From assembly GCA_029246845.1 (NCBI GenBank), contig JAQWMJ010000049.1, forward strand, positions 1 through 26,916: a stretch of DNA of 26,916 nucleotides, read 5' to 3'. Positions 2,893 to 25,943 of this stretch are shown here, one piece after another (position 1 is the first letter of the stretch; the number at the start of each line of letters is the position of its first letter). The notes beneath the pieces are model-generated. The model was not told where the DNA came from, ran no database searches, and worked only from the letters and a program-made list of their open reading frames with translations. A program made the translations under genes and the position numbers. The stretch comes from Thermodesulfobacteriota bacterium. Its GTDB lineage: Bacteria; Desulfobacterota_D; UBA1144.

Positions 2893-3794
2893 GTATTATC
2901 GTAGTAGGTTCATCGGCTTTTGACGATATTGAAACACCAAGAGGCTCAAGAAAAAGAATAGTGGGTGGCTCGTGTATATATTTTTCTCTTGCTGCCAGTT
3001 TTAAAACCAAGGTTAATATCGTTTCAGTTGTTGGAAAAGATTTTCCAAAAAAAACAATTCAAACTCTAAACAAAAAAGGAATTTCTACTGAAGGATTAGT
3101 AGTGAAAAAAGGTAAAACTTTTAGCTGGGGTGGAAAATATAACAGTTTTTCTGAGGATCCTGAAACAAACTTTACAAACTTAAATGTTTTTGAATCTTTT
3201 TCTCCAGAAATTCCAGATTCATACAAAGAAAAAAAGTCTATACTTTTCCTAGCTAACATAGATCCCGATTTACAAAATAAGGTTGTTGACCTATATGAGA
3301 GACCCAAAATAATTGGTTTAGATACAATGAATTTTTGGATTGGATTTAAAAGAAAACAGTTACTTAAGATGTTAAAAAAAGTTGATATCCTTACTATAAA
3401 TGAGCTAGAACTTCGATTGATTGGTAAGAAGAAGTCTTTACATGACTGTTTAAAAGTTTTAACCAATGATATAGGCATAAAATTTCTTATTGTTAAAAGG
3501 GGAAGTGGTGGCTCTCTATTGGTTACAAAGAAAAGCTTTGATTGGGTTCCAAGCTATCCATTTTGTGATGTTGTAGATCCAACTGGTGCGGGGGATAGCT
3601 ATGCTGGAGCACTTTTTAGCTCACTAGACATTCTAACCTCTTTAACCTCTAAGTCGATTATTGATTCGATGGTATATGCATCGGCTCTATCATCTTTTAC
3701 TATTGAGAGTTTTGGCGTTGACAGTCTGCTTAAACTAAAAAAGAAGGATATTTTAAAAAGAGAAAGGGAACTAAGAAAGATTGCAAGAATTTAA
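2889..3794 (+). CDS. PfkB-family carbohydrate/nucleoside kinase
   Basis: N-terminal VGSSAFD..GGS; C-terminal anion-hole signature DPTGAGDSYAG; ATGA overlap with mtnP stop. Confidence 0.9.
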   Translation: MSIIVVGSSAFDDIETPRGSRKRIVGGSCIYFSLAASFKTKVNIVSVVGKDFPKKTIQTLNKKGISTEGLVVKKGKTFSWGGKYNSFSEDPETNFTNLNVFESFSPEIPDSYKEKKSILFLANIDPDLQNKVVDLYERPKIIGLDTMNFWIGFKRKQLLKMLKKVDILTINELELRLIGKKKSLHDCLKVLTNDIGIKFLIVKRGSGGSLLVTKKSFDWVPSYPFCDVVDPTGAGDSYAGALFSSLDILTSLTSKSIIDSMVYASALSSFTIESFGVDSLLKLKKKDILKRERELRKIARI

Positions 3795-4749
3795 CACTCT
3801 TCTCAGACAAATAAGCTTAATACTAATTTTATTTCTAATTCCCAACATATCATTATCTAAAGAGTTTAGAGGAAGCTTTATCGCATGGGGAACTAACTTA
3901 GATTTTATTGTTCACTCTGAGCTCGAACGCGATGAGGTAAATTCCATAATTTATAAAGTTCAAAAAATTCCTAATTCTATGGAACTAGTACTAAACTCTA
4001 AAAATCCCAATTCAGAGTTATCAAGATTAAATGATTTAATATCCAATAAAAATATGGAACTAAGCGAGGATCTTTTCTTTCTTATCGAGGAAGGATTTTA
4101 TTACAATGAAATTTCTGATGGGTATTTTGATATCACAGTTGGGAGTCTAAATAATCACAAATCTATTTATAACGAATCAAAAAATCAGCAAGAATGCATG
4201 GGGGTAAAAAATCTGGTTTTAGATTATGAATTAAGAACTATAATTAAAAAAAAGAAATGTATAAAAATAGATTTAGATGGATTAGCTGAAGGCTATGTCA
4301 TAAGACTTATGTTGAAGGCGCTTAAAGAATCTGGCATAGATGATGTATTATTAAATTTTGGAGGTAATGTTAGTACTCTATCAAATAAGTCAAACTGGAA
4401 AGTTTCAATTAAAAATCCTGATTTTAATAATGAGATTAATTCTACGGTTAATTTGAACAATTTATCTATATCAACTTCTAGTCAATATTCAAAAATAATA
4501 AAAATTAAAAGTGATAGTTTCTCACATATTCTTAATCCAAAACAAAAAGTATTTAAAAGTAAGAAAAATATCTCTATCTCAGTAATAAGTAATGACCCTA
4601 TTTATTCAGATGCCATGTCAACATCGCTACAAGCAATGCCAATAGAGAAGGCTTTGGAATTTTTAAAAGAAGCTAAAGACATTAAAGCTATAGTTTTAAA
4701 AAGGACTAAAAATAGGGAAACTAAAACTTTATTTAATAATTTTCAATAA
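3781..4749 (+). CDS. apbE: FAD:protein FMN transferase (ApbE family), divergent
   Basis: Hydrophobic N-terminal leader; AWGT, SELSRLN, GYFDITVG, DLDGLAEGY, NFGGN, STSSQY, SHILNP, SDAMSTSL in ApbE order; exact start uncertain. Confidence 0.85.
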   Translation: MQEFNTLLRQISLILILFLIPNISLSKEFRGSFIAWGTNLDFIVHSELERDEVNSIIYKVQKIPNSMELVLNSKNPNSELSRLNDLISNKNMELSEDLFFLIEEGFYYNEISDGYFDITVGSLNNHKSIYNESKNQQECMGVKNLVLDYELRTIIKKKKCIKIDLDGLAEGYVIRLMLKALKESGIDDVLLNFGGNVSTLSNKSNWKVSIKNPDFNNEINSTVNLNNLSISTSSQYSKIIKIKSDSFSHILNPKQKVFKSKKNISISVISNDPIYSDAMSTSLQAMPIEKALEFLKEAKDIKAIVLKRTKNRETKTLFNNFQ

Positions 4750-4752
4750 ATC

Positions 4753-4780
4753 TTTACAAAAAATATGTTTTATGTATTAT
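4753..4780 (+). promoter_or_regulatory. Putative sigma70 promoter of the porin gene
   Basis: TTTACA (4753-4758), N16, TATTAT (4775-4780); AT-rich background lowers specificity. Confidence 0.4.
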
Positions 4781-4787
4781 TAAAGTC

Positions 4788-4812
4788 ATTATGGATGTCT
4801 TGTATCCATAAT
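4788..4812. promoter_or_regulatory. Palindromic operator-like box
   Basis: Perfect inverted repeat ATTATGGAT-N7-ATCCATAAT between the putative -10 and the RBS; related box upstream of FTR1. Confidence 0.6.
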
Positions 4813-4833
4813 ATCTATTATAGGAGGAAAATT

Positions 4834-6132
4834 ATGGTAGATTTTAAAAAAGTTAGAGTTCTACTTTTAGTTGTTTCTGCACTATTAGTAGCTCCTTTTT
4901 CAAGTTCTTTTTCTAAAGAATCAGCAGATTTGAACAGTTCCTCTTTTTCATCAGCTTCAACTGACGAAAAGATTAGTATTCTTGCAGAAGAAATTGAAAT
5001 TTTGAGAAATCAAGAACTTTACGGCGGCGAAATTGGCTCAGTTAAAGGTTTTGGTCCTGCGGCCTCAAAAGTTTATAACACGTCAAAGGGTCTTGCTATT
5101 GGTGGTTATGGAGAAATTTATAACAAATCATATTTAGCAGGTGACAATTACGATCAATCTGATGCTTATAGAGGTGTCGTCTATATAGGGTATAAGTTCG
5201 ATGACGAATGGTCTCTTAACACAGAATTAGAATTTGAGCATGTTAAAGAATCATATCTAGAATTTGCTTATATTGATTATGATCCAAAAAAGTTTGACGG
5301 GAAGTTAGGCTTTAGAGCAGGTCTTTTACTTTTACCAATGGGTATAGTGAACGAAATGCACGAACCTACAACATTTCATGGAGTATTTAGACCATGGGTT
5401 GAGAATAAATTAATTCCAACTACATCTAGAGAAAATGGTTTTGGTATTTATGGTTCATTGATGGATGATAAAGTTGAATACAAATGGTACTACGTTAACG
5501 GTTGGCAAAATCCTGGGGCTACCAAAAAAGGCGCCGGTATGAGAGACTTCAGAGGTAAGGGAGGCGAAACAGTAAGTAATGAATTCGCTAACGTTGCACA
5601 TATTTTAGTCCATCTTAACGAGTATGCGGATATTGGATTTTCAATTTATGACGGTGAAATTAACCCAAAAAGTGGTACATCAGTAACAGTTAATGATTCT
5701 AACTCATCTGTTAGAATGTTAACAGGTTGGGTCAAGGGTGAAATTTCAACTTATGAATATACATTCCTATATCATGAAAACAGATTTAGTTCCGTTTCAA
5801 GATTAAACTCAACTTTAACAAGTAATCTTCACGAAAAATTCGGTACTAAACAAAAAGGTTATTACTATAGTGTAGCTAAGGATATTGGCTCAATGATTGG
5901 AACAGATTGGTACGTTGCACCTTTCTACAGATATGAAAATCTGAATTTCCATGATGAAGTTGATAGCTCAGCTTTTACAAACAGTGATTACGATACACAA
6001 TATTATACTTTTGGTTTAACTGTTAAGCCGATCTATAACGTTGTGTTAAAAATGGATGTTACAAGATATACGGATAAAGCGGAGAATGGAGATTCCAGAA
6101 TCCTTAGTCTAGGTCTTGGATACATATTCTAG
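4834..6132 (+). CDS. Outer-membrane beta-barrel/porin with N-terminal coiled segment
   Basis: ATG 4834 with AGGAGG at 4822-4827; signal peptide ending SSFS; amphipathic aromatic beta-strands (IGGYGE, YIGYKF, ELEFEH, EFAYIDY); C-terminal LGLGYIF beta-signal. Confidence 0.8.
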   Translation: MVDFKKVRVLLLVVSALLVAPFSSSFSKESADLNSSSFSSASTDEKISILAEEIEILRNQELYGGEIGSVKGFGPAASKVYNTSKGLAIGGYGEIYNKSYLAGDNYDQSDAYRGVVYIGYKFDDEWSLNTELEFEHVKESYLEFAYIDYDPKKFDGKLGFRAGLLLLPMGIVNEMHEPTTFHGVFRPWVENKLIPTTSRENGFGIYGSLMDDKVEYKWYYVNGWQNPGATKKGAGMRDFRGKGGETVSNEFANVAHILVHLNEYADIGFSIYDGEINPKSGTSVTVNDSNSSVRMLTGWVKGEISTYEYTFLYHENRFSSVSRLNSTLTSNLHEKFGTKQKGYYYSVAKDIGSMIGTDWYVAPFYRYENLNFHDEVDSSAFTNSDYDTQYYTFGLTVKPIYNVVLKMDVTRYTDKAENGDSRILSLGLGYIF

Positions 6133-6161
6133 AATGAAACCATCCTGTGTTTAATTTTAGA

Positions 6162-6243
6162 GGTATTTACCAGGCTGCAACTCTTATATTAATCTCTGCC
6201 GGGGACAAGCAGCTTCTACAAAGGTTACAGCCTGGTGAGTATT
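6162..6243. ncRNA. Candidate structured RNA/long imperfect hairpin, family unassigned
   Basis: ACCAGGCTG(C)AAC at 6169-6181 pairs with GTT(A)CAGCCTGGT at 6224-6236, extendable with G-U pairs; inner CTGC/GCAG hairpin; GC-richer than other spacers. Confidence 0.45.
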
Positions 6244-6275
6244 GACAAAAGGCAAATGAAAAGTAGATATAAATT

Positions 6276-6794
6276 ATGAATGTTTTAACACTTTTTATCT
6301 TTTCAATACTCTCTTTATCATCAATTGCGGGCGTTTTAACCGATGTTCCTTCAGTCTTAAAGTTTTATTTTGGAGACTATGAGGTTAAAAGAGAGCAAGT
6401 ATTTTTGACGTCTACAACAATAAAAGAGCTAGAAAGAATATCAAAAGCCAAGTTTGAATCAAGGATATATTCCGTTTATGAAGCTAAGTCCAATGGAAGA
6501 AGGGTTATGAGCGGGATCCTAGAGACCCACTTGCTTAGGAGTAGAACGCAAACGTTGTTTGTAGTCTTTGATAAAAGTGGAAAAATTGTATCAACTCAAG
6601 TCCTAGCATTTTATGAGCCTGAGGAATATATCATGTCCCCTGAATGGTTCTCCAAGTTTAAAACGAAATCAATTAATGATAGAATGCAACCAGGAGATGA
6701 TGTAGTTAAAGTTAGCGGCTCTACAATTTCTTATAATGAAACAGCTTCAGCTATAAGAAGAATGACCACTCTTTATAATTATATCTATAAATAG
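6276..6794 (+). CDS. Exported FMN-binding domain protein (probable ApbE flavinylation substrate)
   Basis: Signal peptide; LAFYEPEEY, WFSKF; C-terminal VSGSTIS resembling the [S/T]GA[S/T] flavinylation motif followed by a helix. Confidence 0.8.
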   Translation: MNVLTLFIFSILSLSSIAGVLTDVPSVLKFYFGDYEVKREQVFLTSTTIKELERISKAKFESRIYSVYEAKSNGRRVMSGILETHLLRSRTQTLFVVFDKSGKIVSTQVLAFYEPEEYIMSPEWFSKFKTKSINDRMQPGDDVVKVSGSTISYNETASAIRRMTTLYNYIYK

Positions 6795-6818
6795 TTTATT
6801 ATCGGATAAGATATCATA

Positions 6819-7313
6819 ATGAGATTTTTTGTTACAAAAGACCTAAATAAAAATAGCGCCTTGAAGCTAATAATCTTCTTTTCCTTAATTTTCTTTATTG
6901 GGCTGATAGTTACAAATTTTTTATTTATGTATAAGATTGGCTTTACACCATCTTCGGTGACTAATTATTACTTGGGAAACCCAGAGATATTTAGACAACC
7001 TAAGAGTTATGGCTCACTTGTTGAAGAGACACATTTTCACCTATTTGCAATGGGAATTATCTTAATGACGCTTAATCATTTAATGCTTTTTAGTAAGCTT
7101 AAGGATAGTTATAAAATTTGGATAATAGTAATATCCTTTACATCTTGCTTGCTAGATATAGGATCAAGCTGGCTCGTTAGATATGTTTCCAGCAGCTTTT
7201 CAATAGTTAAGGTGTCATCAATGATTGTTGAGCAAGTATTCTTACTATTGTTAATCATTATAATTACCAAATCCATATTTACAAAAGAAAATAATGAGGT
7301 CATATACAAATGA
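6819..7313 (+). CDS. Hypothetical inner-membrane protein, about 4 TM, with H-x-H...H motif
   Basis: Four hydrophobic segments; EETHFHLFAMG..LNHL. Confidence 0.7.
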   Translation: MRFFVTKDLNKNSALKLIIFFSLIFFIGLIVTNFLFMYKIGFTPSSVTNYYLGNPEIFRQPKSYGSLVEETHFHLFAMGIILMTLNHLMLFSKLKDSYKIWIIVISFTSCLLDIGSSWLVRYVSSSFSIVKVSSMIVEQVFLLLLIIIITKSIFTKENNEVIYK

Positions 7314-7660
7314 AAAAAATATTAATTTTAACGCTAATTCTTCTTACAATAAGCTTCGAAGCTTCAGCAGACTTTAAACCTCTGGTGAAAGAAGTTAGGC
7401 AACTAAGAGAAACTCTTTCTAAAACTAAGACAATCAGTAAGGCAGAATTAGAGAAATCTCTTTTGTCTATTAAATCAAAGACGCCATTAATCAAGAATGA
7501 AATTGCAAGAGCAGATTTAACGGGAGATGTAGATATTTTGATTAAAAAATATATAAAAAATAATGAGAAATCTTCTGCAGACACAAAAGATGTTGATTAT
7601 TGGCTAGTTCATATAGTTGATGATTTGGCCATGTTTGTTAAATTGGGAATCACTGAATAA
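7310..7660 (+). CDS. Small exported alpha-helical hypothetical protein
   Basis: MKK + hydrophobic core + ASA cleavage site; ATGA-type overlap with the upstream stop. Confidence 0.65.
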   Translation: MKKILILTLILLTISFEASADFKPLVKEVRQLRETLSKTKTISKAELEKSLLSIKSKTPLIKNEIARADLTGDVDILIKKYIKNNEKSSADTKDVDYWLVHIVDDLAMFVKLGITE

Positions 7661-7697
7661 TTTTATTGAACTAGTAAAAAATTAAGTTAATATATCA

Positions 7698-7718
7698 TAG
7701 ATATCCTACATCTAGGAT
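7698..7718. promoter_or_regulatory. Palindromic operator-like box upstream of FTR1
   Basis: TAGAT-N7-ATCTA (7698-7714) overlapped by ATCCTA-N4-TAGGAT (7703-7718); just downstream of TTGAAC-N16-TAATAT (7666-7693). Confidence 0.5.
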
Positions 7719-7727
7719 TGCAACATT

Positions 7728-8504
7728 ATGAGTACAGCATTTATTTCTTCATTTACCATAATTTTTAGAGAGTCACTTGAGGCTGTGCTTATTGTCGCGG
7801 CAATTTATGGTTACCTTAATCAAATAGGTGAGACTTCGGCAAAAAAAATCATTAACTATGCCTGGATTGGAGCGCTAGCCGTTGGTGGGATAACTTTCGT
7901 TGGTGCAAATTATCTATTTAATCTTACCGTAGAACATGCAGAAATTGTTGAAGGTGTTACAAGCATAATAGCATCCTTGGTATTGTTTCAAGTAGGTGCT
8001 TGGTTTGTTAGTAAAGCTGAGGCAAATAAGTGGAAGCAGTATGTAGAATCAAAGATTAAATGTGCAATATCAAACAGAGACCTATTAACCCTTTTCTCGG
8101 TTGTCTTCTTTGCAGTATATCGAGAGGTCTTCGAGACAATATTGTTTTACGAAGCACTTTTATTGCAATTTGATTCTGAAAGTATATCAATGGGATTCAT
8201 AGCAGGAGTTTTTGTAGTCTCTATAATCTCTTATTTGATTCTTAAGATGTCTGTTACATTAAATCTAAGATATTATTTTCTGGGAACTAGTGCAATGTTA
8301 TTCATTCTCTCTATATCTTTTATGGGATATGGAATTACTGAACTACAAGAAGTGGGAATATTTGATACCACTTTAATATCCATACCTAAGATTGCTATTC
8401 TGGGAATATATCCAACAATGGAAACTTTAATTCCGCAATCAATACTGCTTGGACTATTAAGTTTGTCTATTTATAAAGCTTTCTTTAAAAGGGATAATGC
8501 TTAA
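7728..8504 (+). CDS. FTR1/EfeU-family high-affinity iron permease
   Basis: About 7 TM; two RExxE motifs (FRESLEA, YREVFET); G..ELQE; LGIYPT.ET. Confidence 0.92.
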   Translation: MSTAFISSFTIIFRESLEAVLIVAAIYGYLNQIGETSAKKIINYAWIGALAVGGITFVGANYLFNLTVEHAEIVEGVTSIIASLVLFQVGAWFVSKAEANKWKQYVESKIKCAISNRDLLTLFSVVFFAVYREVFETILFYEALLLQFDSESISMGFIAGVFVVSIISYLILKMSVTLNLRYYFLGTSAMLFILSISFMGYGITELQEVGIFDTTLISIPKIAILGIYPTMETLIPQSILLGLLSLSIYKAFFKRDNA

Positions 8505-8506
8505 AA

Positions 8507-8797
8507 TTACTTATCAACTTCTTCTTTCTTGTCTACCTTAGTATTTAATGCATTAAGATAAAGATTCTTAAGATTAGAAAGTGTTTCAGACATAATCTTT
8601 TCTTCATCGTCCGATAAGTTGTTTTTGGTTTTTTCTTTTAAAACGTCTAATATATCTATTAAGTCCTTAGCTCTATTTAAGTCTATTGATACTTGACCTG
8701 TTGCAGGATCAGGTGAAAGACCCAAATGTATTGTCGCATTAACTGCATAAGACAGAATTATATTAGAAAAATTCATTAAAATTTTATCATCACTCAT
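8507..8797 (-). CDS. DUF1844-like protein
   Basis: HLGLSPDPATG..DLNRAKDLIDIL..LKEKTKNNLS..E pattern; GGAG RBS. Confidence 0.75.
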   Translation of the reverse strand: MSDDKILMNFSNIILSYAVNATIHLGLSPDPATGQVSIDLNRAKDLIDILDVLKEKTKNNLSDDEEKIMSETLSNLKNLYLNALNTKVDKKEEVDK

Positions 8798-8852
8798 TAT
8801 AAAAGCTCCATTTTTGACTATTATTTACTATATTAGGTATTTTATAGGCTAA

Positions 8853-9899
8853 TTAGAATATATCTAGCAATTTTTCTGCTATATCTACGAAAGCTTTACT
8901 TGATGGTGAATCAGGATTACTGTAGACGATAGGCTCCCCGTTGTCTCCACCTTTTCGTATTTCTGGATCTATTGGTATCTCACCCAAAAAAGGAACTTCA
9001 AACTTTTCTGCCATAGCTTTTCCGCCACCACGACCAAATATATCAATAATTTCATCACCATTCTGAAGATAGCTCATATTCTCTATTACTCCAAGAACAG
9101 GAACATTAAGCTTTTTAAACATTTGTATTCCTCTTTTGACATCTAACAGTGCTACATCCTGAGGTGTGGTGACAATAATTCCACCATTTAATGGAACTGT
9201 TTGAATTAAGGATAAATGAGCATCACCTGTTCCAGGTGGCAAATCTACAACTAGATTATCGACGCCTTCCCATTCAACGTCTTCAACAAATTGCTTGATG
9301 GCTCCATGTACCATGGGGCCTCTCCATATTACTGTATCATCGTCACTTAAAAGAAATCCAATTGACATCATTTTTATATTAAATTTTTCTATAGGTAGAA
9401 TTTTATCATCCTTCGTTGCCATAGGCTTTGTATCGATTCCACACATCATAGGTATGCTCGGTCCCCATATGTCAGCATCCATAAGTCCAAAATTTTTAAT
9501 TTTCTTAGAAAAAGCTAGAGCTAAGTTTATAGCAACTGTAGATTTACCAACACCTCCCTTACCACTCGCTATTGCAATATACTTTGAAATATTGGGTAAT
9601 TTAGGATTTGGTTCACTATCAGGAGAATTAGCAGGCTGTTGAACAGCGGCACCTTTATTCTGATATGCAGTAAATTGAAGTTCGGGATAATCCAATCCTT
9701 CTCTTGAAAAGGCATTGTTTATTCCAACTGTAAGCTTTTGAGCAAGTTCTTGATCTTCTTTAGGCAACTCTAGTACTATTGTAACTTTTTTATCTTCTAT
9801 AGATAAATCTTTAACAATTCCAAAAGAAATTATATCTCTAGTAAATCCAGGATAGGTTACATCTTTTAATAAATCGAATAAAAACTCTTTAGACTTCAT
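8853..9899 (-). CDS. mrp: Mrp/ApbC/NBP35 P-loop ATPase (Fe-S carrier family)
   Basis: SGKGGVGKST, DADIWGPS, IWRGPM, DLPPGTGD, VTTPQ, ENMS; N-terminal DUF59-like segment. Confidence 0.93.
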   Translation of the reverse strand: MKSKEFLFDLLKDVTYPGFTRDIISFGIVKDLSIEDKKVTIVLELPKEDQELAQKLTVGINNAFSREGLDYPELQFTAYQNKGAAVQQPANSPDSEPNPKLPNISKYIAIASGKGGVGKSTVAINLALAFSKKIKNFGLMDADIWGPSIPMMCGIDTKPMATKDDKILPIEKFNIKMMSIGFLLSDDDTVIWRGPMVHGAIKQFVEDVEWEGVDNLVVDLPPGTGDAHLSLIQTVPLNGGIIVTTPQDVALLDVKRGIQMFKKLNVPVLGVIENMSYLQNGDEIIDIFGRGGGKAMAEKFEVPFLGEIPIDPEIRKGGDNGEPIVYSNPDSPSSKAFVDIAEKLLDIF

Positions 9900-9902
9900 A
9901 AA

Positions 9903-10307
9903 TTACATACCAAGCTTATTCTTAGCTTCGTCAGACATCATGTTTGGATTCCATGGCGGATCCCAAATAATTTCAACTATCACTGTTTTAGCGCCCAATG
10001 CATATAATACATTTTCAACCTGCCTAGTAATTGCAGAACCCATAGAACAGCCAGGAGTTGTTAGGGACATTTTTATATCTATATTGTTATCAGCAGTTTC
10101 AACATTATAAATTAACCCCAAGTCAACAATACTTACTGGTAATTCGGGATCCATAACATTTTTAAGAGCATCCAGAACTGTCTCTGAGGTAAAAGTGTAG
10201 TCTGATTCTTGTTTCTCTTTCTTTTTAAAAGATGTAAGCTCTACATTTGAGGTGCTTGGACTATTTGTTGTTGAATTGATATCTTTTTTAAAAACAATTT
10301 TTTTCAT
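9903..10307 (-). CDS. DUF59/SufT/PaaD-like metal-sulfur cluster assembly factor
   Basis: DPEL..SIVDLGLIY, SLTTPGC, WDPPW..MMS.EAK. Confidence 0.9.
   Translation of the reverse strand: MKKIVFKKDINSTTNSPSTSNVELTSFKKKEKQESDYTFTSETVLDALKNVMDPELPVSIVDLGLIYNVETADNNIDIKMSLTTPGCSMGSAITRQVENVLYALGAKTVIVEIIWDPPWNPNMMSDEAKNKLGM

Positions 10308-25866: not shown

Positions 25867-25943
<77 letters not shown>

Follow-up and report, generated by a model that had tools for sequence, protein, structure and literature searches.

The stretch of DNA analysed here (the window) comprises 26,916 nucleotides of contig JAQWMJ010000049.1 and stems from a metagenome-assembled genome (MAG) of a marine Candidatus Dadabacteria, an assembly of 1.04 Mb in 54 contigs that is 91% complete. 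The host belongs to a marine, genome-streamlined lineage of Dadabacteria, for which related MAG contigs originate from seawater and proteins are found in Tara sources. Between positions 3781 and 8504 six open reading frames (ORFs) follow each other on the + strand with tiny gaps or none, encoding in this order ApbE, a porin, a protein binding flavin mononucleotide (FMN), a protein with four transmembrane (TM) helices, an exported protein of 116 amino acids (aa) and the permease FTR1. The original prediction, made from the nucleotide sequence, had described them as six co-oriented genes for envelope proteins that form a candidate flavinylation-dependent iron-uptake system. The ORFs were recovered as described, all on the + strand, and the identities assigned to them were upheld by Pfam for ApbE and FTR1, by a fold model for the porin and by an RnfG-like profile for the FMN-binding protein. 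A hydropathy scan revealed an N-terminal hydrophobic segment or TM helices in all five products other than the permease. The features of the region are:

3781..4749, + strand: apbE, encoding FAD:protein FMN transferase (PF02424, E 1.7e-47, 162.6 bits against a cut-off of 25.6)
4765..6132, + strand: outer-membrane porin with signal peptide, periplasmic coiled coil and 16-strand barrel
6162..6243, + strand: intercistronic hairpin in the porin-flavoprotein spacer (16-bp stem, -30.3 kcal/mol, z -3.07)
6276..6794, + strand: exported RnfG/NqrC-like FMN-binding protein (FMN_bind, PF04205, at threshold)
6819..7313, + strand: 4-TM inner-membrane protein of the Aq_1264_TM family (PF27139, after the Atlas and homologue annotation)
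7310..7660, + strand: small exported helical protein, 116 aa, its start overlapping the stop of the 4-TM gene by 4 bases
7728..8504, + strand: FTR1/EfeU-type permease (PF03239, E 9.7e-29, 101 bits against a cut-off of 25.3)

Comparison with other genomes showed that the conserved unit is the trio of porin, FMN-binding protein (hereafter flavoprotein) and 4-TM protein, often accompanied by ApbE, and that FTR1 and the 116-aa gene are lineage-specific additions to it. The flavoprotein is present in 91 of 120 Dadabacteria species genomes. In a first set of 31 Dadabacteria loci (+/-8 kb, one or more per family) the three genes were adjacent and co-oriented in 30, with the porin upstream, and in the last one ApbE lies between flavoprotein and 4-TM protein and no porin was found by tblastn; ApbE was located no more than 8 kb from the flavoprotein in 22 of these loci and FTR1 within 8 kb in eight. 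A second set of 80 loci on genome contigs, drawn mostly from the species of the first set and including one MAG titled Myxococcales, displayed the flavoprotein/4-TM pair in 79 and an upstream porin in 76 cases. The third set, 80 metagenome loci, was found with a different alignment of distant members, and GC contents of 0.38-0.76 were observed in the 13 loci inspected. Here the flavoprotein gene lay directly upstream of the 4-TM gene in 78 loci, the other two matches being situated at a contig end, with the porin upstream in 56/80 and ApbE in 11/80. Finally, 301 genomes were sampled from the phylum of the Myxococcales-titled MAG; 26 contained a 4-TM match, and among 15 loci fetched the flavoprotein stood beside the 4-TM gene in 11, tandem-duplicated forms with eight TM helices included. 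For ten of the 11 the porin was detected in the short locus and for L234 in the longer locus L249.

In the marine family all six genes behave as a cassette, since the whole block is cleanly missing in two sister genera (genomes G111 and G117), where the same flanks are retained, the pfkB-family gene abuts the DUF1844 gene and all six genes are jointly absent. An arrangement that recurs in relatives and is missing as a block in two sister genera is far beyond chance. The flanks consist of an MTAP gene and a pfkB-family kinase gene upstream on the + strand and, directly downstream of FTR1 on the - strand (window 8507-10307), of a DUF1844 gene, a gene for an Mrp/ApbC-type Fe-S carrier and a SufT-like gene. 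Because the cassette-less relatives keep the same flank, the neighbourhood of these last three genes is not specific to the cassette.

The flavoprotein was the sole FMN_bind match in a six-frame search of the genome, in which it reached 23.3 bits and thus exceeded the cut-off of 22; its orthologues scored 28-37 bits. A profile built from 29 orthologues matched the RnfG structures 9eri_G (E 1.1e-5) and 7zc6_G (E 8e-4), and this match together with the scores favours membership in the FMN_bind family. The aligned region spans the motif ITG[AS]T, which falls on SGST of the window protein (residues 147-150), where Ser takes the place of Ala. The flavinylation motif has been given as [S/T]GA[S/T] with the last Ser/Thr modified (Meheust et al., 2021, eLife; PMC8238504), and the predicted flavinylation site is therefore Thr150 (codon 6723-6725). 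This residue is invariant in 29/29 sequences, the motif reading TGAT in most relatives and SNST in one genus. The pairing of ApbE with a substrate, as claimed originally, is borne out in so far as the genome holds a single recognisable FMN_bind target. The family resembles RnfG/NqrC in that its profile aligns with them across the flavinylated Thr motif; unlike them, the window protein is free-standing and exported, and its partner is the 4-TM protein and not RnfD/NqrB. No member of the NqrB/RnfD family (NQR2_RnfD_RnfE) was found in the 91%-complete genome, and hence other Rnf/Nqr subunits went undetected.

ApbE begins with a TTG codon and overlaps the 3' end of the pfkB-family gene. Its residues 6-29 form an N-terminal hydrophobic stretch in the hydropathy scan, a candidate export or anchor segment. 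As it reached only 74 bits with the NCBIfam ApbE equivalog, whose cut-off is 498, it is considered a divergent member. The association of ApbE with the 4-TM family goes as far as fusion: among 15 longer members of the family tested, five were 4-TM/ApbE fusions, in which an extra TM helix would place ApbE outside the cytoplasm. A second, weak ApbE-like match (39 bits) was noticed in a 345-aa ORF on another contig of the genome (G000:C41:16022-16465, locus L224).

The 4-TM protein scores 0.96 to clusters of PF27139 in the ESM Atlas, and PF27139.1 is precomputed on all of at least 120 homologues listed, some of them 92-93% identical to the window protein; among the 120 listed, the source names read 'hypothetical protein' throughout. 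When 1.84 billion representatives (clusters at 50% identity) were searched with a profile, 892 were hit at E <=1e-3, 363 of them at E <=1e-10, and source names and the Atlas place members of the family in Latescibacteria, Methylomirabilota, Binatia, Pseudomonadota, Calditrichota and Campylobacterota. AlphaFold2 modelled four transmembrane helices with a mean predicted local distance difference test (pLDDT) of 92.7. Histidine occurs exactly three times in the protein, each time on helix 2, with His72 and His74 at the periplasmic end of this helix and His87 deeper in the membrane. In 66 diverse members H72 and H74 are invariant and H87 is conserved in >=90%. The conserved residues Y51, G53, Y64, E70, H72, H74 and W118 lie at or near the periplasmic face, and the likewise conserved H87 and K99 are oriented toward the cytoplasm. 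Even with E allowed up to 1, the 66 members remained without a match to models of the NapH-like, MsrQ-like, PepSY, DsbD, NqrB/RnfD and DUF4405 families; Foldseek with the confident model returned nothing at E <=0.001, and a sequence profile search of the PDB with the family gave no match. Alignment of the model with VIA-align retrieved generic four-helix bundles only (Z <=8.9), which were discarded. When the 4-TM protein and the flavoprotein (6819-7313 with 6276-6794) were modelled as a complex, the score was 0.06, which speaks neither for nor against binding.

The 4-TM family includes several variants. Tandem-duplicated 8-TM forms of about 300-330 aa (P0030, P0044 and others) retain only the equivalent of H72 in repeat 1 and those of H74 and H87 in repeat 2, and they still adjoin porin and flavoprotein genes (L243, L244). 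This distribution points to a dimeric working unit with a putative asymmetric His site. In P0104 the 4-TM domain is fused to Fe_dep_repr_C, a DtxR-type metal-binding domain, plus FeoA, and in P0057 to PilZ. Two divergent Aq_1264_TM-like members from the other phylum (L246:943-1842, equal to L252:5599-6498, and L247:1093-1872, equal to L250:6800-7579) display a long periplasmic loop with the haem c motif CXXCH about 40 residues before HxH, which they retain, and are devoid of H87. No FMN-binding gene accompanies these two, and in L250 a dihaem cytochrome c gene follows directly. A redox role of the 4-TM protein is favoured by these CXXCH-bearing relatives, one of which precedes a gene for a dihaem cytochrome c.

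The window porin itself had no Pfam match. Its true start is likely Met24 (base 4834), where the Atlas record begins, and its C-terminal end reads ...GLGYIF. An AlphaFold2 model based on 26 orthologues consists of N-terminal helices followed by a 16-strand barrel (pLDDT 71.9, predicted template-modelling score 0.71), and the top Foldseek matches were OmpC/OmpF/OprP/OprO (E ~1e-11, TM-scores 0.5-0.7). Weak Pfam matches occurred among the 26 orthologues, namely IAT_beta in 14, BBP2 in 12, OMP_b-brl in five and Porin_O_P in two; a profile search of the PDB produced coiled-coil noise only. With a mean column identity of 47% the family is unusually conserved for a porin. Its invariant residues include the alternating strand E154-x-E156-x-E158-H159 and the loop H199-E200-P-T.

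FTR1 of the window carries RESLE at residue 14 and REVFE at residue 132. Two REXXE motifs are the functional mark of FTR1/EfeU permeases. The protein is without a cytochrome c domain and is 44% identical to the C-terminal part of a 644-aa cytochrome c-FTR1 fusion from L048. Such fusions, 640-810 aa long, are the usual form of FTR1 in non-marine Dadabacteria (for example L048:4338-6272, L232:6480-8726, L233:7160-9358 and L176:2326-4362), and short FTR1 proteins lacking the cytochrome domain are found in the marine family and in family f6. The 116-aa protein possesses a signal-like hydrophobic N-terminus, no Cys and one His. It was detected by tblastn in nine of the 31 Dadabacteria loci, all of the marine family, always beside FTR1 and/or ApbE, and lies directly upstream of FTR1 in both gene orders known from this family. 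No convincing family match was obtained for it; a hit to NheA in NCBIfam (16 bits, cut-off 500) was noise, and derivation from the N-terminal extension of the cytochrome c-FTR1 fusions was dismissed for want of any likeness in BLASTP.

Evidence linking the module to iron comes from several lineages. Judged by coordinates, eight genomes of the marine family have FTR1 at most about 2 kb away from the flavoprotein, either in the order of the window (ApbE-porin-flavoprotein-4TM-116aa-FTR1) or, as in L067, with ApbE/FTR1/116aa divergent from porin-flavoprotein-4TM. In family f8 all 31 genomes that possess both genes have a cytochrome c-FTR1 fusion of 640-720 aa within 10 kb, divergent from the porin and with ApbE at the far end. 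The metagenome locus L176 unites a DtxR-family repressor, cytochrome c-FTR1, a ferritin-like protein, porin, flavoprotein, 4-TM protein and ApbE, and L249 from the other phylum shows porin, FMN_bind, ApbE, 4-TM and FTR1 genes, all co-oriented. Recruitment of FTR1 thus took place independently in two phyla and no fewer than four gene orders. A further profile hit to 'FTR1' in L247 proved to be a cytochrome c gene, as the FTR1 alignment had included the fused cytochrome domain, and was discarded. Upstream of the porin, sites resembling a Fur box (consensus of 19 bases) were found with <=6 mismatches in 12 of 39 non-Dadabacteria loci against 76 of 1119 control windows, and with <=5 mismatches in 5/39 against 22/1119, counts that overstate independence because some of the 39 loci are near-duplicates. 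Taken with the DtxR/FeoA fusion, the several gene orders including FTR1, the DtxR and ferritin genes of L176 and the Fur-like sites substantiate the link to iron drawn in the original prediction.

P19 (PF10634) was absent from the window ORFs as well as from the 91%-complete genome, in which Peptidase_M75 (EfeO), multicopper oxidase, NapH-like Fer4_5 and TonB-dependent receptors were likewise without a match; the M75 and oxidase result does not extend to FtrD-type polyferredoxin and EfeB, which were not searched. A search with FeoB_N was unspecific, giving matches in 14/14 control genomes, GTPases among them. The claim that the usual FTR1 partners and NapH, RNF or NQR donors are missing consequently stands genome-wide for P19, M75, multicopper oxidase, Fer4_5 and NqrB/RnfD. 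Since no TonB-dependent receptor, P19, EfeO or multicopper oxidase was matched, the cassette may be the main iron route of this genome.

Comparable systems are known. In yeast and algae a Fre reductase precedes Fet3/Ftr1, and the bacterial FTR1 systems comprise EfeUOB, FetMP and FtrABCD. With these the window shares a permease with two REXXE motifs, extracytoplasmic redox partners and, potentially, the logic of reduction before import. It differs from EfeUOB, Fet3-Ftr1 and FtrABCD in that the reductase would be a periplasmic covalent flavoprotein with its own porin, and in having no multicopper oxidase, M75 or P19.

Closer parallels are found in surveys of flavinylation. In the text of Meheust et al. 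(2021; PMC8238504) five uncharacterised classes of flavinylation-linked membrane proteins are distinguished (NapH-like, MsrQ-like, PepSY-like or FoxB, DsbD, and NQR/RNF-like) and 260 P19/FTR1 clusters with an FMN-binding gene are reported; the word 'porin' does not occur in its main text. Those clusters, which are likewise mechanistically uncharacterised, combine FTR1 with an exported FMN_bind protein and ApbE-type flavinylation in a proposed redox aid to iron uptake and are in this regard like the window. They are unlike it in being mostly Gram-positive and without porin, 4-TM Aq_1264 protein and 116-aa protein, P19 in turn being absent from the window genome. Huang et al. (2024, mSystems; PMC11334425), whose main text mentions neither 'porin' nor 'FTR1', added the DUF4405/FezC cytochromes, described there as small membrane proteins that build haem b sites by homodimerisation and occur in iron-related systems, which provides a precedent for a protein as small as the 4-TM protein. 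With the classes named in these sources the 4-TM protein has in common that it is a small, His-bearing inner-membrane protein beside an ApbE substrate, often near iron transporters; it differs from DUF4405/FezC, as characterised there, in having three conserved His on one helix and not four central His. A full-text literature search returned no description of the 4-TM family or of the gene set, the cluster tables of PMC8238504, which may hold it unlabelled, not being covered, and nothing relevant on a link of iron and flavin in Dadabacteria or on fused FTR1-cytochrome c. No match to a characterised cluster was thus found in the literature, in agreement with the original prediction. What is new within the known theme of ApbE flavinylation and iron assimilation is the uncharacterised membrane partner family and the dedicated porin.

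The analysis established what the genes encode, that flavoprotein and 4-TM protein are strictly paired, that porin and ApbE are linked to them, and that FTR1 and further iron genes were recruited repeatedly and independently. The six genes probably form one iron-uptake cassette, in which a widespread envelope module was joined to FTR1 and a small periplasmic protein in the marine lineage. As to its working, periplasmic iron reduction dependent on flavin and feeding uptake is tentatively taken as the best reading, with a confidence that falls a little short of even. In the periplasm ApbE would flavinylate the exported RnfG-like protein at Thr150 with FMN, and the Aq_1264-type protein would serve as its inner-membrane partner, contacting the flavoprotein and linking it to the membrane electron pool by way of a presumed cofactor. 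Weakly complexed Fe(III) would enter via the dedicated porin with its putative lining of acidic residues and histidine, and be reduced by the flavoprotein; FTR1 would then move the released iron across the inner membrane, relatives without FTR1 needing another route. That iron passes the barrel and that the 4-TM protein supplies electrons, both proposed originally, we infer, as we do the direction of electron flow. Flavins are low-potential and the usual cofactor of assimilatory ferric reductases.

A number of observations weigh against this reading. The window flavoprotein obtained 21.9 bits with FMN_bind against a cut-off of 22 and hence lies at the Pfam threshold, not clearly above it. No electron donor was identified for the module, the 4-TM family is without sequence or fold match to a known cytochrome or transporter, and its only three conserved His are placed on one helix; because they are split between the repeats in the duplicated forms, two bis-His haems do not fit. 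As regards regulation, the marine family has no conserved site resembling a Fur box, and no DtxR match was found in the genome. Within the window no site came within three mismatches of the Fur consensus, and the best one, with four mismatches at 7250, inside the 4-TM gene, was attributed to chance, being absent from a 97-99% identical relative and unconserved in position. The coupling to FTR1 is loose as well. FTR1 was found in two of the 80 metagenome loci only. Among the 120 Dadabacteria genomes 76 possess both FTR1 and flavoprotein, 15 the flavoprotein only, 19 FTR1 only and ten neither (in one of the latter, G115, a contig ends inside FTR1), counts that are near the expectation under independence, so that FTR1 and module are not co-dependent. 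Cytochrome c-FTR1 stands alone among housekeeping genes in families f2, f4, f5, f7 and f9. Against a fixed system of six genes it also has to be considered that in one marine genus four of five species (80-94% complete) keep the trio, the 116-aa gene and ApbE without an FTR1 match. Conservation of FTR1 synteny in relatives, on which the original prediction depended, holds for about half of the cases: of the 76 genomes with both, 39 have FTR1 no more than 10 kb from the flavoprotein by coordinates, and in the remaining 37 the two are on different contigs or, in complete genomes, more than 300 kb apart. The notion of a single six-gene system accordingly stood as far as trio and ApbE with repeated recruitment of FTR1 are concerned, and did not for FTR1 as a constant member, which is absent from 15 of 91 genomes with the flavoprotein and from 78 of 80 metagenome loci.

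These discrepancies leave room for other explanations. It is conceivable, if unlikely, that the 4-TM protein is a gated Fe2+/Mn2+ channel or permease, by which the trio would become a complete path and FTR1 an optional second importer. This reading is favoured by the occurrence of the trio without FTR1 in most lineages and by the acidic motif E-E-x-H-x-H at the periplasmic mouth of TM2 with the third His deeper; the tandem 8-TM forms recall small dimeric transporters. C-terminal cytoplasmic regulatory fusions such as DtxR-type plus FeoA in P0104 and PilZ in P0057 are typical of gated transporters, and these fusions fit such a transporter equally well. A permease, however, leaves the flavoprotein without an identified electron source, the ApbE fusions tie the 4-TM family to flavin chemistry, and redox chemistry is suggested by the CXXCH-loop relatives, with a cytochrome c gene coming next in one case; the missing fold or sequence likeness to any known transporter also counts against it, not conclusively.

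An equally unlikely alternative would be to see in the trio a general periplasmic flavin redox module acting on a substrate other than iron (a metal, an oxidant or a small organic compound) that enters via the porin, with the link to FTR1 being secondary and lineage-specific. The lacking coupling with FTR1 in phylogenetic profiles and the housekeeping surroundings of most loci would agree with it, and dihaem cytochrome c peroxidase, AhpC, an HMA-domain protein and a CDF exporter each occurred once as neighbours. It does not account for the independent recruitment of FTR1 in two phyla and in four gene orders or more, nor for DtxR and ferritin in L176, the DtxR/FeoA fusion and the enrichment of Fur-box-like sites upstream of the porin.

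Reverse electron flow, in which Fe(II) would be oxidised on hand-over to FTR1 and flavoprotein plus 4-TM protein would act as electron sink in the manner of FtrB/FtrD, appears quite improbable. FTR1-type permeases are generally described with an oxidising partner, Fet3/Ftr1 and FtrABCD being the models; other Dadabacteria FTR1 proteins carry a cytochrome c domain of their own, and the domain-less marine FTR1 is situated beside the flavin module in eight of nine marine-family genomes with an FTR1 match. Protein-bound FMN, on the other hand, is of low potential and a poor acceptor of electrons from Fe(II) at neutral pH, oxic seawater holds little Fe(II), and in 15 of 91 genomes the module occurs without FTR1. 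Least of all, and very improbable, would the 4-TM protein export FAD/FMN to the periplasm for ApbE with no direct electron or metal role: the five of 15 longer members fused to ApbE through an extra TM helix and the obscure route of FAD to the periplasm in most bacteria would speak for it, but the family goes with one particular FMN-binding subfamily and the porin belonging to it, not with ApbE substrates in general, the pair is kept without ApbE in 9/31 Dadabacteria and about 69/80 metagenome loci, and CXXCH-bearing relatives exist.

Returning to flavin-dependent iron reduction, a bolder version of it would regard porin, flavoprotein and 4-TM protein as a trans-envelope redox conduit, a flavin counterpart of the porin-cytochrome complexes of the MtrAB type, with Aq_1264 as a new class of transmembrane electron carrier or redox-gated metal channel; this is a long shot. 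Iron limits life across much of the ocean. If it existed, a conduit of this kind, spread over many phyla, would allow bacteria with small genomes to capture iron after reducing it, with no need of siderophore receptors, TonB or multihaem cytochromes. Working out the module would add a class of membrane partners to ApbE-dependent extracytosolic electron transfer and extend the redox partners of FTR1-type permeases by a new kind. As it consists of only three to six genes, all of which can be expressed in E. coli, the role of periplasmic flavinylated proteins in iron uptake is directly testable with it.

There is a hint that the cassette genes are transcribed in the sea. Contigs from RNA libraries of four runs in three studies match the cassette at 90-100% identity. 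They span the porin gene in full (4788-6138), two parts of the flavoprotein gene (6317-6490, 6748-6963) and one part each of the genes for the 4-TM protein (7020-7173) and the 116-aa protein (7312-7491); the spacer between porin and flavoprotein is bridged by one contig (6109-6448). Such contigs cannot give levels or single transcripts and may include DNA carry-over, and missing cover of ApbE and FTR1 is uninformative.

The spacer just mentioned harbours the hairpin at 6162-6243, the loop of which, about 50 nt long, holds a small inner hairpin. A long hairpin with differing stem letters was present at the same place in 9/9 marine-family loci folded (z -1.9 to -4.7), each assessed as a single fold. 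Rfam offered no family for it and nothing credible in the intergenic region, and RNAalifold gave no consensus structure on the poorly alignable intergenic regions. The hairpin could be an element of mRNA stability or processing setting the ratio of porin to downstream products, or a cis-regulator.

Convergent to the 4-TM gene, a protein of about 428 aa is encoded in loci of several Dadabacteria families (L041:6157-7443, L045:6174-7448, L053:6204-7487, L061:8999-10294). It has neither Pfam match nor signal peptide, is cytoplasmic and is conserved in Dadabacteria, the proteins of L041 and L061 being 42% identical. Being cytoplasmic and unrelated to the neighbour in L192, it was rejected as part of the module, and its position probably reflects conserved synteny only. 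A scan of the window for promoters and terminators yielded no signals above those of shuffled sequences, and a single tRNA gene at 25867-25940 was the sole Rfam match in the window.

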